From NCBI GenBank assembly GCA_905178155.1, contig CAJINV010000012.1, forward strand, positions 62,001 to 126,000: a DNA stretch of 64,000 nucleotides, given 5' to 3'. The notes under the pieces were generated by a model, which was given only the letters and a program-made list of their open reading frames with translations, was not told the origin of the DNA and did not search any database. Of this stretch, positions 47,182 to 59,700 are shown piece by piece. The stretch is from Amoebophrya sp. A120. Taxonomy: Eukaryota > Protista > Dinoflagellata. Numbering within the stretch: position 1 is the stretch's first letter; each line of letters opens with the position of its first letter. The translations under genes were made by a program, and so were the position numbers.

Positions 47182-47417
47182 TATGAAATGCAAAAGTGTC
47201 TGGGTCTGGAAGATTCTGAGACTTGTCACGCATGTTTTGCATGAGCCTGGATGTCTGTAATGCACGACCTAGCATCACAGATTTTTAGAGGGCTCCCTGA
47301 CGCCTACTCCGCATGACAAACGCCCTCCCCGCGTCGCACAAACTAGACTCCTCTTGCTGGTCATGCAAAACAGATATTTTTACAATCCAAAGTTAGCATC
47401 ACAAGTTTCAACCTCCC
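47182..47417. mobile_element. Truncated introner family D in a pseudogene fragment
   Basis: Left TIR and interior match 58133-58397; right TIR lost where the array unit begins. Confidence 0.8.
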
Positions 47418-48640
47418 ATCACAAGTTTCATTCTCCTCCACATCGGACAAGATCAAAAACAGAGCGGTTTTCGAAGAACTTTATAAATCTTCCTGCCACA
47501 AACTCAACTAAAGACAGAAAGTGCTACGACTTGCGGCTCGGTGTGGAAGTCATCTGAATTCACTAGAACTCCAAACGCTGCCGACATCAAGCACGAAAGG
47601 TATCTGTCATAGGAGCTCGTTGTACATTTTGTGGAAATCAAAATTATCGTTCTCGTTTTTGTACTAAATACATTTGCATGCTTATATGTAGGTTTCAGTC
47701 GACTCTTCATTTCGACTCAGTGGCTCCACATCACCACAACATAGAGCGATATCGATGGATACCAGACCGCGACAGGTAGATAACTCATCGATCTGGCTCG
47801 ACGCTAGGTAGAAAGCCTATGCATGGAAGAAGTCGACTCTTGTTCTCTTGATGAGCAGCTGTAGTGTAGCTCCGAATGGTTGCAGATAAGCAGCGGTTGT
47901 CCGTGTTTTTGTAGAGATTTAAATCACGCTTGGTGACAATTTAAATAAATTTGGGTTTGTTTCAATAAAAGTTTTTTCTTGATGACTCCTGCCCGGCTCC
48001 GGCCCGACTGGATCCGGCTCCGGAGATGAAAATACAGGGCGCCGAGATCTTGTCTGGGCTCCTTTTTGGGAGGGAGGCTGTTTTCTTTTTTTCAAGTTGT
48101 ATAGCGCATCCTTTAATTATAATTTCGTCGAAAAAGGGTACTTAATGCCAAAACTCGGGGGGGCTGTACGAAGCTCTTCACTTGTCGCGTTTAGCGCCGA
48201 CGGCAGCTGCTACACTAGCAACTGCTTTGGGCATTCATAAAAATCGTACATCAACAAGAAAAGCAGAGCGACTCTTACCTACTTTGCACATGTAGAATCG
48301 AACTCGTAGGCTTCTAAACCCTGATTTTACACCCAATAGAGCCTTGCACTTGCTGCGTCGGATCGTGAAAAATTGATTCCAATTTATTAGGAGCTTGTAT
48401 AAAATAAATAGAGCTACTTACTCTTCACCAACCTTTTTTTGACTTTGTCGCGTTACACTTCGCTTCGCTTCTACCGTGGTGACTGGCGGAGCCTCTCACT
48501 CTAACCCTCGATAGACAGGCGCGGGCTTACATGCATCTTTTCGCGACCTGGCACACGACTAGGATAAAGCAGTGTGGACGCCTCTCTGACGTGATCACAC
48601 GCCTTTGCCCTAAGCCCTGAGCTATCTACGACTTTCTACC

Positions 48641-49458: not shown

Positions 49459-51756
49459 TCACCTACGAGGCGGGGATCCGGGTCGACCCGTCGAGCGGGG
49501 CAATGCCGATGCCAGCCGCGCCGACGGACGATACTGCAATAATGGTTCTTCATCACTGCGAGGGAAACTGCTATCCCCGCGAGGGAAACTGCTATCCGCC
49601 CCACCAACATCCCCGCGAGGGAAACGAGTTGCGCCAGATGGAGAGGGCTCCTGCTGACCCCGACGACCCTCCGAAGGACAGCGAGCAGCCGGCGCAGCGG
49701 AGCGAGCAGAGTGACCCCTACCAACATGCGGAGTCCGTCGAGCCGAGGCCTCCAGCGACTTGGTTGCGTAGGAAGTTATCATAGAAGCAGTCATGGACGA
49801 CTTGAGCTGGAAGTAGTCCTCGATGGACATCTTTCTTACAATGAAAAATGCCCCCACGGCCCCGGAATTATGATGTAGATGTGCAGAGCTTTCTCATGCA
49901 TAAGGTTATTTCCAAATGAAGGACTTTTACTTTTTATCTAGTATGCATGAAAGGACTACTAGAAGCCTTTCTGATGCAGAGAATGTACTAGGTGCGGTGC
50001 GCAAGGTATAACCTTTTGCATAACAGATCCGACAACTGCTGTTGGGCTCCTTTGCAACACAAATCTGAGCTATTCAGCATGGAAAACCTGTGATGCCGGA
50101 ACTATACGGGGTATGTTTCTATGTATTGGAAAGGTTTGCAATGCAAACGCTGCCAAGCTCTGGGGTGGGGGCGTTTTTCATTGTAATAATGTCCCGATAA
50201 TCCCCATAATTGAGTTCACGAAAATCAGCGAGAAATGTGTCACTAAGCCAGTGTGTCCGCCATGGGTTATTTTTCCCGGAACTTATCCAGTGCCAATATG
50301 TCTGGGTCTGGAAACTTGTGATGCTAAAATGTGCATCATCATCATCATGTAGTGGACACCCGCTCCCAGCGCCACAGGTCAAGGATCCCCTCCCCGGGGG
50401 GTGGGCGAGGAAGCACTTTCGGCGACCTCATCATACAAAAGCCGAGCGCTACCACGGCAAGTCGCCCCAATAAAAGTACGAACCAGTCGGGAGCTACCCA
50501 CCACACCTGATCAGTACAGCCCGGCCAGCTAGCCGAGCGCGACAGCCCAACATACAGAACGATCCAGGACCCGACCCATTTTACCTGCATGATGAAAACA
50601 CTTCCGAATGCAGACCAGCATGACAACTTTTCGGAGCACTCTCTCATAGGCAGCCCACATGTCATGAGAAACTGCGTTTTTGCATGACAAAAATGGCTGC
50701 GGCTTTTGTCGGTTATGCAATACAGATTGAGATTTCCCAGGAATGTAGGGCTAGCATTACACGTCGCAACTTTCCAGACCCAGACATATTTGCATTTGAT
50801 AGAACGAGCTGCAACCCATCTGAGGCCATCCTGACGAAAAATCCCCCTCGGGGATTCGGTAGCGAAGCCGCCAACCGTGAACTGCAACTGCTCGTGCTCC
50901 TGGTAGTGGCGCCCGCCGTTGATTACCATCGTATGCAGTGCAGATATGTCTGGGCCTTGAAGAAGGATTCGAAATAGTGGCGCGAGTTGCGGATGATCAT
51001 ACAAACGGCTGCGCTGCATGACTGGCAAAAGGTGCTCACTTCTGGCCATGCTGAGAGTCGTATAATATATATTTCTCGTGCAGAACAATAGGGGGCATCA
51101 CGAAGGGACTGCAGAACCTGTGATGCTAGGCCCCGCATTCGTCTAGACCTCAGGGCCAGGGACCTTGGAAAAACTGCGTGGCAAATAATCTCGGAATCTT
51201 CCAGACCCAGACACATGTGCAGTTGATACACGGCAGCAAGAAACAGTTTGTGCGCACGAGTCAAAAACGCAGGTGACCAGGAGGGTTCGAGCGGCATGGG
51301 TCCGGACTTGTACTCCAATGTAATGCCAAAAGCAGGACGCTGGGAAATGGTCCAGTAACCGTCGGGCGTCTGGCTGTCCTTATAGATGAACAGGCGATTG
51401 AGAGCAAAAAAGTAAAGCCAGGGTGTTTGATGATTTTTTGCCCAAGAGAGCAGGTCCTCCACCTGGTCTACCGCCAGCTGCGGGCTTGTATCAGGAGTTG
51501 CGCCGTACACCTGATAAGCATATTCAGCTACACGCGGGGGTCCTGACGCCCGCGCACGTTCTACAAGTTTGTCCCGAGCAAGTTCTACAAGTTTGTCCAC
51601 GAGTCCACGATAATCGGCTAGCTCTGGCGAGCCGGCGACGACCGAGTGATGTGGACCGGCCTTAGGGTTGCCAAATAACGACCCCAACGATGCGCTGACC
51701 ACTGCTACCGTCGACAAATGACAAACGAGAGACATCACAAAAAAACGCGCCGGCAT
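49459..51756 (-). CDS. Hypothetical secreted protein, ~370 aa, 4 exons
   Basis: Exons 51756-51229,50926-50802,50278-50189,49828-49459 are in frame; signal-like N-terminus; 3' end uncertain. Confidence 0.6.
49834..50188. mobile_element. Introner family H
   Basis: TIRs; DR atctt/atgtc; frame restored. Confidence 0.8.
50284..50801. mobile_element. Introner family D carrying a LINE 3' fragment
   Basis: TIRs; DR gaact/gaacg; matches uninterrupted copy 59164-59416. Confidence 0.9.
50337..50585 (-). mobile_element. 5'-truncated copy of the LINE (3' UTR end + (ATG)n tail)
   Basis: Near-identical to 26856-27106; TSD tgcat at 50332-50336 and 50586-50590. Confidence 0.92.
50932..51228. mobile_element. 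Introner family D (diverged interior)
   Basis: TIRs; DR catcg/cacgg. Confidence 0.82.
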
Positions 51757-56793: not shown

Positions 56794-59700
56794 CTAGACT
56801 TTCACCAAAGCTAAGTAACCGCCCTTCCTCAGGTACTCTTCTTGCTTTGCGGCGGGGGTTTGCTTTTGCTTCTCCCGTTCCAGCCAGGGGCTGCTAAACT
56901 CCAAATCGACCGCCCAACTCATCAGCAACCGGGCCCATCTATGAAGGCGTCAGGATCGAAATCAACAAAGTCGAAAAAATCAGGAAGGCAGATCATAGTC
57001 CTGAAAAGGGTTGCGAGTTGGGCTGCTGACTAGCATGACATAAGGGAGCCGAGCTCTTTGGCCCTAAACTACCGCATGACAGATTCGCTTCGAGAACGGG
57101 GAAAGTCTACAAGAACTGTCCCGCGCCGACTACAAACTGCAGGTCTAACTGGCATCGATTTTGTGCATCACATTTTTTTCGATTTTGTCGATTTCGAACC
57201 TGACACCCCCATACCACCCGCTGCGTCCGTAGTCTCGGCCGGCGTTGAAGTAAACCGTGTCGGAAGTCGTCTCTTCCAGCCATCCGCAACTGTCGATGCA
57301 CGCCGGCCCGAGAAAAAATTTCCCGAATTTTTTCGTGTGGCAGTGGATCAGCGCCATCGTTTGGACGTCCGCGAAGGGGTTCAGCGCATCGCCGTACCGT
57401 CCCAACCCCGCGTGCTCGATGGAGGAGTAGGAAAACCACATGTCATATCCACTGCAAAAAGCATCGCACTCTTAGTAATTGCATTTATACATTACAAATT
57501 TCTTTCTCAAGACAAATCAGCATTACAAATAATTCAATTTGTAATGCTGGGCTAATTTGTAATGCAGTTTATACTAGTGCGATGCTTTTGCAGTTCATAT
57601 GTCAAAATCGAAAGACACATCGCTCGTCAGTAGCTCGTGGAAAAACAAAAACCGCCATCGCTTGTGGGGGTATCGGGGTTGTATCGACGTGCTTTTCTTC
57701 TCGTCGAAGACTCCGTCTAGCTCGTCCGGATGCCCCTCCACGGGTGGTTATGCATTACAAAAGCATCATTACTAGTAGTAGAAATCGCATTACAAATAAT
57801 TCGGTCAGCATGTTGACACATGGAATTTTTTGTCATGCTGTTTTACGTTGGGGTAGAGATAATTTGTAATGCATGACTGCGATTATAATTGCTACGAGAA
57901 GTGCGATACAATTTTTGCACAGGATAGTGGTTTATCCTGTGCAAAAGTATCGCACTCGTACAAATGCTAATGCAAGTCTTGCATTACAAATCTTGTTTCC
58001 ACGGCAAATCTGCATTACAAATTTTATTTCTCATGCTGAGGAAATTTGTAATGCATTTATACGAATACGATACTTTTGCACAGGATAGTGGTTTCCGGTA
58101 GTCAACCGTGGTTACGATCGCGGTGGGGAAGCTATCACATGCAAAAGTGTCTGGGTCTGGAGTGTTGCCGAGTTTGTCATGCATACTTTGCATGACCCAG
58201 GATGTCTGTAATGCACGCCCTAGCATCACAGATTTTTAGATGGCTTCCTGATGCCTACTCCGCATGACAAATGCTCTCCCGCCCGCGTAGCACCAACTAG
58301 ACTCCTCTTGCTGGTCATGCAATACAGATTTTTTTAGAGTCCAAGGTTAGCATCACAAGTTCCAACCTTCCAGACCCAGACATTATTGCATTTGATAGAA
58401 GCGGTACAGCAGCAAAATCTCCATCCAGGGCTGCTCACTGCCCAGAACCGCGATTTTCAAATTAATTTCCTGCTGGCCCAGCAACACCGTTTTGTCGTTC
58501 TCGTTGTGCCAGGTCTATCAAAATGAGAAATCCCCCCGCCCCATATCAAAACGGAAATTTGTGATGCTGCTTCGTGGCCACAAATCAGCTTTGTATTGCA
58601 GAGAGGAATGGCGGCCAGATCCCCAGGCTAGGTAGGGGCTTATGTGTCTAGTTGTTCAGCATGGCAAACGGCTCCCCTTTAGGCCTAACAGCATGACAAA
58701 CCGCCTCCATAATGGGGCGAAAGCTTCTGCCCTTGTCTTCTTGCAAAACAGATGTGATTTGTGACCTCAAATCCGCAACACAAATTTTTGGACACATACC
58801 TTTTCAATGTGGGGAGGGGGGATTTTTCCTCTCAGTAAGGTCTTGTTCGAATTCGCGAAAAACGTATCGCGGTTCCGCATGATCGCCGCGTCAAGAATGA
58901 AGACCGTGTCGTCTTGGTAACTGGAAACGGTTTCGTTTACGAAATGGAGATATGCATTGCAGACGTATCGCGCTAGTATAAATTGCATTACAAATCGACT
59001 TACCATTACAAATTGAATTTCTATTGCGGATTTGCCTTCAGAAAAATATTTGTAAATGCATAAACGCAATTAAAACGAGTGCGATACTTTTGCACTGCAT
59101 AGGAGAAACACCAAATCGCTGTCCGTCCAGAGATTCAGTGCGTAGTCGCGCTTGAGCGCTCTCTATGAGATGCAAATGTGTCTGGGTCTGGAAACTTGTG
59201 ATGCTAAAATGTGCACGATGAAAACGCTTCCGAATGCAGTCCGGCTTGACAACTTCCCAAAACGCTTTCTGATATGCAATCCGCATGAGAAACTGTGTTT
59301 TTGCATGACAAAAGAGGCTGCGACTTTTGTTGGTTATGCAATGCAGATTTTCTAGGTATGGAAAGCTAGCATTACAAGCTCCAACCTTCCAGACCCAGAC
59401 ATTTTTGCAATGCATACTCTCTTTTCCAAGATGTTGCGGTAAAGTTTCTGCTTGGTCTCCAGCGCAATCCGTCGGTTTTCCGACAACCCAGCGTGTCATG
59501 AATTGCAAAAGTATCGTTATCGTATTCCTATTCGGATAAATGCATTACAAATTTCCTCAGCACGAGAAATGAAATTTGTAATGCTGATTTACCTTAAGAG
59601 ATGAATGAGAAAGATTCGTAATGCATGACTGCAATACGAGTGCGATACTTTTGCACAGGATACGTGTTGCATCCACCCGAAAGGATTGCGGAGCAGCAGT

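Follow-up and report, generated by a model that had tools for sequence, protein, structure and literature searches.

A 5′-truncated copy of a divergent LINE in a spliced Amoebophrya introner, probably inserted by pairing of its tail with CAT or TCA at the target

A filled introner and its LINE insert

The window analysed here, a 64,000-nt stretch of contig CAJINV010000012.1 of Amoebophrya sp. A120, carries at 50284-50801 an introner of a family that we call 'D-like', with TAT...ATA inverted ends of about 35 nt (35-38 nt), bounded by the direct repeats GAACT (50279-50283) and GAACG (50802-50806) and filled by a fragment of a LINE. The element belongs to a repeated family and has both a terminal inverted repeat and a 3-5-nt direct repeat at its borders, in line with PMC7789003, which describes Amoebophrya introners as having inverted ends starting with TAT, direct repeats of 3-5 nt at the splice borders and non-canonical ends. 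Elements with inverted ends number 28 in the window and zero to one in each of five shuffled windows. Introners occupy 17.5% of the window, close to the ~17% given for the genome of strain A120 (PMC7789003). Other host elements of the window and of the loci described below likewise have TAT...ATA ends, with 5-bp flanking repeats such as ACGCA, TGGGC, CATCC, TCGGT and CTCTG. A family-D copy at 47182-47418, within a duplicated stretch (45.0-48.4 kb) that looks intergenic, has lost the inverted repeat on its right side.

The filled introner interrupts a gene on the minus strand, between an upstream exon at 50802-50926 and a downstream exon at 50189-50278. A contig of 1,824 nt from run X3, the sample of which differs from that of runs X1 and X2 and the RNA nature of which is presumed, with support from its four joined exons, connects 49828 to 50189, 50278 to 50802 and 50926 to 51229. 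None of the listed runs with matches is on record as RNA, and the raw RNA run X12 yielded 0 matching reads. The second joint of the X3 contig removes 523 nt (50279-50801), namely the element together with its left direct repeat; the intron has non-canonical ends, and the cut can slide by 4. The joined exons are free of stop codons in one of six frames, on the minus strand, and the filled allele is thus likely to be spliced out, in keeping with the sequence-only reading, which had called the host an introner. At this one host element tested, splicing takes out the element plus 5 nt exactly. None of the three exon pieces of the host protein that were tested matched Pfam.

The insert itself (50337-50585, minus strand, 249 nt) comprises a 3′ tandem tail, (ATG)4 at 50337-50348, a stretch of 3′ untranslated end and one extra base, a C at 50585, at its 5′ junction. 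It matches 26856-27106, the 3′ end of a far longer copy, at 244 of 251 positions (97.2%) on the same strand, and has no other match inside the window. TGCAT is present both at the 3′ junction (50332-50336), where its CAT overlaps the register of the tail, and at the 5′ junction (50586-50590). The match, the duplication and the interpretation as a 5′-truncated non-LTR insertion that had been read from the letters are all borne out by this 3′ identity, the tail and the target-site duplication; seven differences and a different host family likewise speak for independence from the long copy. We judge the short copy to be an ordinary target-primed insertion.

Alignment of 50284-50801 with the paralogous introner at 59164-59416 (209 of 253 positions, 82.6%) leaves a single large insertion in the former. 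The paralogue, which had been presented as the empty site, is indeed an insert-free relative, but carries a GCAC variant there, reading GCACGATG, and is not the exact empty site. An exact empty form was found in DNA-type contigs, six in run X1 and five in run X2 (the two runs represent one sample), with a joint from 50331 to 50586 at which five letters fit either side; the contigs may derive from sister introners or from an allele that lacks the insert. Among the matches listed, no contig piece crosses the two junctions of the short copy; evidence for the filled allele accordingly comes from the window itself and from the clean duplication there.

The long copy and its protein

The long copy spans 7,241 nt (26856-34096, minus strand) within a family-E introner (26632-34171), and run X1 apparently contains no other full-length copy. 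Its presence (region 26546-34330) would turn a 300-nt intron of a minus-strand zinc-finger gene into one of 7.5 kb; a zf-C2H2_13 domain is encoded in the exon at 22330-23370, which we place in the same gene. Depth in X1, which is not a true copy number, is about 23 over the 5′ half of the long copy, about 50 at 27.4-28.5 kb and 1,500-1,900 near 27.0 kb, a profile consistent with a single full-length copy accompanied by tens of 3′ fragments. A ~420-nt copy (matching 26860-27282) apparently lies in a deep RNA-type contig of X3, with an 11-nt tandem repeat on one side, possibly in an untranslated region. None of the RNA-type contigs covered the ORF.

A single ORF, open over 1933 codons (27805-33606, minus strand), encodes APE-like endonuclease motifs followed by a reverse transcriptase (RT). 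The whole ORF had no match in Pfam or in PDB sequence searches, and none came from word-index protein searches, tblastn against phages or scans of prokaryote genomes. A full HMMER search, in contrast, yielded eight relatives at E<=0.001, and four of the five that were looked up are named Amoebophrya proteins. Alignment with these relatives retains the endonuclease motifs W-N, GD(F/V)N, IDF and DH and the RT motifs KxR, D..N.FN, QG and DD. One relative matches Exo_endo_phos at E=4e-4, below the curated cut-off, and the endonuclease part of the query itself has no Pfam match; the RT piece matches RVT_1 weakly (E=0.062) at its FIDDG motif. Atlas look-alikes of the ORF, taken as leads, scored 0.94 for RVT_1 and 0.94 for Exo_endo_phos. 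Another relative has a V-SNARE domain annotated in front of the LINE ORF, which suggests a gene model running into a sense-direction LINE insert in another strain.

The RT region contains long insertions and has FIDD at its catalytic motif. A structure model of this region built from nine sequences was of modest confidence (pLDDT 54.9), with 283 of 700 residues under 50; a single-sequence fold (pLDDT 35) was set aside. Foldseek placed R2 and human LINE-1 ORF2p first with this model, ahead of all other polymerases (E 5.5e-5 to 9e-4), at 8-11% identity, and structural alignment (VIA) gave Z 14.9 and an rmsd of 5.1 over 402 aligned residues. Together with the conserved motifs and the weak RVT_1 match, the model argues for a reverse transcriptase of the non-LTR type, and the motif alignment for a predicted N-terminal APE-like endonuclease. 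In its 3′ tail, 5′ truncation, short target-site duplications or target truncations and lack of LTRs, the element fits an APE-type LINE.

Further copies and their junctions

An exact 20-nt pattern scan of a metagenome collection returned eight further loci (L001-L008), all from one assembly, which may be close to the source of the window; five of five viral-contig matches were dropped as chance 16-mers that had neither the tail nor flank similarity. With the two window copies these loci make a set of ten junctions, in which the exact-pattern search favours young, assembled copies. Nine of the ten 3′ junctions lie inside inverted-repeat introns, one lies at an intron border and none is intergenic. 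The earlier observation that both window copies sit in introners thus extends to the wider set. Both arms of the host are present in seven of ten cases and the left arm only in two (L002 and L008), and L006 has no left arm.

All eight extra copies end after 34 to ~650 nt of LINE, and the 5′ ends of copies other than the short one scatter (34, 35, 102, 175, 477 and 565 nt). This scatter bears on the idea that the 249-nt piece is a unit-length, SINE-like non-autonomous partner rather than a random truncation. Such a partner would agree with the far greater abundance of 3′ fragments over the ORF; the dispersed ends, the lack of a foreign head and the lack of a stable fold in the last 104 nt (z=0.18) make it most improbable.

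Both ends are defined in eight copies, the 5′ ends of L002 (contig end) and L008 falling outside this count. Four of the eight have short duplications, of 5 bp at the short copy, 4-7 bp at the long copy and 5 bp plus microhomology at both L004 and L007, and the other four (L001, L005, L003 and L006) have no duplication and show target deletions of ~2, 5, 14 and 150 bp, as judged from sister introners. Microhomology occurs at several 5′ junctions. At L006 the LINE 3′ end joins exactly at the border between exon and family-F introner, ~150 bp of the left part of the introner is missing, and the 5′ end joins at AGTGCCA, a site shared within family F; a large target deletion, a later deletion or a misassembly may account for this arrangement. 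At L008 the LINE-like sequence extends for ~650 nt, divergent beyond the first 500, and gives way to unrelated DNA; the right half of the family-D host is absent.

Insertions also occur elsewhere. Three to four copies in RNA-type contigs are not spliced out, with 3′ flanks such as AGTTGT and GAAGCG, and an older 94-nt copy was found within a 15.6-kb contig of X1. As these exceptions were selected for lying outside introns, no ratio can be drawn from them.

Read on the plus strand of the window up to the 3′ junction, the flanks are TGTGCAT at the short copy, CCGCATGA(T) at the long copy, CTCCGCAT at L001, L002 and L005, AGTGCCA at L003, GCTTCA at L004, TCTGCAT at L006, GATTCA at L007 and ATGCAA(T) at L008. 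GCAT is therefore found at six of ten DNA junctions, the remaining four reading GCCA, CTTCA, ATTCA and GCAA. GCATGA is found at five of ten (at three of them as deduced from the sister consensus), four of these being one homologous site, and occurs in two of seven site classes, L006 having no GA. The longer word GCATGATG is demonstrated at one junction. It had been proposed that both window copies sit at TGCATGATG, a proposal that was not confirmed. The left flank of the long copy reads CGCATGAT, and sister introners of its host that lack the insert show GGCTCCGC+ATGAGAAAC (a 10-contig consensus with an agreement of 0.9), so that its target would have been GCATGAG or a rarer GCATGATG variant.

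Strict endonuclease specificity for TGCATGATG or GCATGA would have explained why GCATGA stands at the junctions of both window copies and probably at three further family-E copies. It is nevertheless scarcely credible given the four junctions devoid of GCAT, the restriction of GCATGA to two site classes, the flanks of the RNA-type copies, the GCATGAG of the long host's sisters and the GA-less L006. The preference for GCATGA(TG) that the sequence-only reading had put forward is not supported on the same counts. Of the check that it had proposed, the target logo came out weak, and the copies proved not to be intergenic. Even the G of GCAT is not significant, since GCAT makes up 301 of the 576 CAT words (52%) in the introners of the window; its presence at six of seven CAT-type junctions has P=0.08 against introner composition. 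Rather than a fixed 8-9-bp target, the junctions share a few bases, CAT or TCA, that overlap the tail. An overlap of CAT, TCA or CA with the tail is found at eight of ten (three by target-site duplication, five by inference), the long copy and L008 being ambiguous. Elements of the Tx1 and R1 type have one conserved target at nearly all insertions; here, ten copies fall into seven site classes. A hairpin as the target was also considered and rejected, in that folding ten sites against 740 CAT/TCA introner sites gave unremarkable percentiles (0.05-0.74), the sister-like reading of the long copy's site being left out of this comparison.

Insertion mechanism, introner enrichment and known systems

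We put at about 0.6 the probability of a reading in which this divergent endonuclease-RT LINE inserted, 5′-truncated, into a spliced introner by target-primed reverse transcription from CAT or TCA on the AUG repeats of its tail, and in which introners gather such insertions. The endonuclease would nick behind TGCAT on the plus strand, the one that serves as template for the host gene; the CAT (or TCA) end set free in this way would pair with AUG of the RNA tail and prime reverse transcription; a second nick 5 bp away would yield the 5-bp duplication, and early joining would add the one base at the 5′ junction. The same pattern of nicking and of priming through an overlap with the tail is described for CR1, L2 and RTE LINEs (PMC6007223; PMC4245944). 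Gathering in introners would follow from their landing words and from the escape of spliced-out insertions from selection. GCAT occurs at 30.6 per kb in introners and 8.1 outside them, and GCATGA at 8.6 and 0.9, respectively, that is, about 4 and 10 times more densely than in other DNA. Most of the enrichment is probably due to this richness in landing words and to tolerance through splicing.

The enrichment is real. Counting L006, ten of ten copies are associated with introners, whose share of the window is 0.175. For seven of seven site classes, P is 2e-4 to 3e-3 against an introner share of 0.29-0.44 of non-coding DNA (our own calculation on figures of PMC7789003, Table 1 and section 11, assuming a similar genome), and 0.06 against a GCATGA-weighted null of 0.67. 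Real, too, is a hotspot in family E, where the long copy, L001, L002 and L005 (four of ten) lie at one homologous base, the long copy being 2-3 nt off. Simulation with 50-200 equal site classes gave P values of 0.0015 to 2e-5 for such a coincidence. A fifth copy at this site is likely in a contig of run X6, and a second common site, in family F, is used by L003, by an X6 contig and by the 5′ side of L006.

The hotspot could in principle have arisen without repeated insertion, if filled introners had spread as composites (by introner transposition or gene conversion) or were assembly artefacts, few LINE insertions having taken place. Four copies at one E position, the four copies without duplication and the broken hosts of L006 and L008 would suit such a course. 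In the six pairs at the hotspot, however, hosts are 79.6-91.5% alike and inserts 97.2-100%, i.e. the hosts are roughly ten times more diverged than the inserts; with the different truncations, this indicates that the four E insertions are independent. Tail lengths differ as well, the short copy has its own exact duplication in another family, and one X1 contig crosses the 5′ junction of the long copy with no differences, in a 5′ half at single-locus depth (23). We consider spread as composites, or an assembly artefact, very improbable; a recent gene conversion of the LINE part alone may have occurred.

Orientation is also biased. The LINE runs in the direction of the host gene in nine of ten copies (both window copies and, by codon score, seven of eight loci), L005 scoring equally in both directions, with junction frames that would allow sense; P is 0.002 if all ten are sense and 0.016 for seven site classes. 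Both E and D hosts are found in either direction, and CAT is about equally frequent both ways (263 vs 313). Strand biases of human L1 have been linked to replication and transcription (PMC10030826), and Amoebophrya genes are described as lying in co-oriented blocks (PMC7789003), so replication or transcription could underlie the bias of the LINE. Composition and selection alone predict neither this bias nor the E hotspot.

Both features invite an explanation by homing, in which source copies lying sense in introners are transcribed together with the introner arm downstream, and this read-through RNA, the endonuclease or a protein bound to introner motifs on transcribed genes steers new copies to sister introners. 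Consistent with it are the use of one E base by four of ten copies despite diverged hosts, the position of the apparently single full-length copy at that same site, the likely X6 copy and second common site in F, the sense bias although hosts lie both ways, and the excess of introner association over either background; pairing between RNA and target is moreover described as aiding priming in I, R1Bm and R2Ol (PMC6007223). Against homing stand the use of six or more host families or sites, the three to four RNA-type copies outside spliced introns, the marginal result under the GCATGA-weighted null and the unremarkable folding of the targets. L005 matches the long copy without a difference for 102 nt and yet has no GAT flank, which argues that read-through from the long copy was not the template of the L005 junction. 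We regard homing as an explanation to be kept in mind, though an unlikely one. Marginally less likely still is its fullest form, in which an Amoebophrya-specific LINE, sitting sense in self-removing non-canonical introns, transcribed as part of the host pre-mRNA and guided by read-through RNA to one identical base in sister introners, would be a hyperparasite of intron-making transposons. Within our preferred reading, of tail-primed insertion and gathering in introners, the likeliest cause of the E hotspot would be that read-through RNA, made from a source copy in this site, pairs with sister introners.

The closest precedent is Tx1L of Xenopus laevis, described as an APE-type non-LTR element lodged in the DNA transposon Tx1D, a 'safe haven' (PMC6719617, PMC1950540). 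Tx1L is described as stringent, with one site in one host element, whereas the present LINE occupies no fewer than six sites spread over several families, and its hosts are, with exceptions, spliced introns inside genes. Closer in tail and junctions are CR1, L2 and RTE LINEs such as ZfL2-1, reported to combine a tandem-repeat tail, one to several bases of which overlap the target, with ~5-bp duplications (3-5-bp peak), target truncations, extra 5′ bases and mostly truncated copies (PMC6007223; PMC4245944). The present element likewise has a microsatellite tail overlapping its target and duplications in this range. This likeness is not one of sequence: its RT has long insertions and FIDD, no sequence match to the CR1, L2 or RTE clades was found, and the relatives recovered are of the Amoebophrya type only. 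R2 and LINE-1, to which the modelled RT region came closest in structure, have a C-terminal restriction-like nuclease and an ORF1 with a poly(A) tail, respectively; the present element combines a single ORF, with APE-like motifs at its N-terminus, with an (ATG)n tail.

Non-LTR elements have been noted in Amoebophrya genomes (PMC7789003), and some A120 introners have been assigned to non-LTR elements (PMC12130899). LINEs nested in introners are not mentioned in the parts of PMC7789003 and the one supplement searched, nor did listings of largely open-access literature return a report of them. New here are the divergent LINE lineage, its apparently loose, tail-guided choice of sites, the introner enrichment and the hotspot and sense bias; nesting as such is already known from Tx1L and Tx1D. 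Should the enrichment reflect targeting, introners would represent a safe harbour of a new type, and the LINE would serve as a model for RNA-guided selection of sites. Whether or not there is targeting, introners that carry a LINE amount to naturally occurring mutants of the introner splicing system: tolerance of 254 additional nt within the element, and perhaps of 7.2 kb in the case of the long copy, would mean that nothing but its paired ends and direct repeats is important. Pfam does not recognise this LINE family, which could also complicate how introners are classified; our guess is that LINE-filled introns with terminal inverted repeats could be scored as retrotransposon-derived introners.

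Despite their unrelated ends, all introner families in the window have a high density of GCAT[GTC]A[CG] words, on either strand (15.7 per kb against 0.9), which may represent a common protein-binding or splicing signal.
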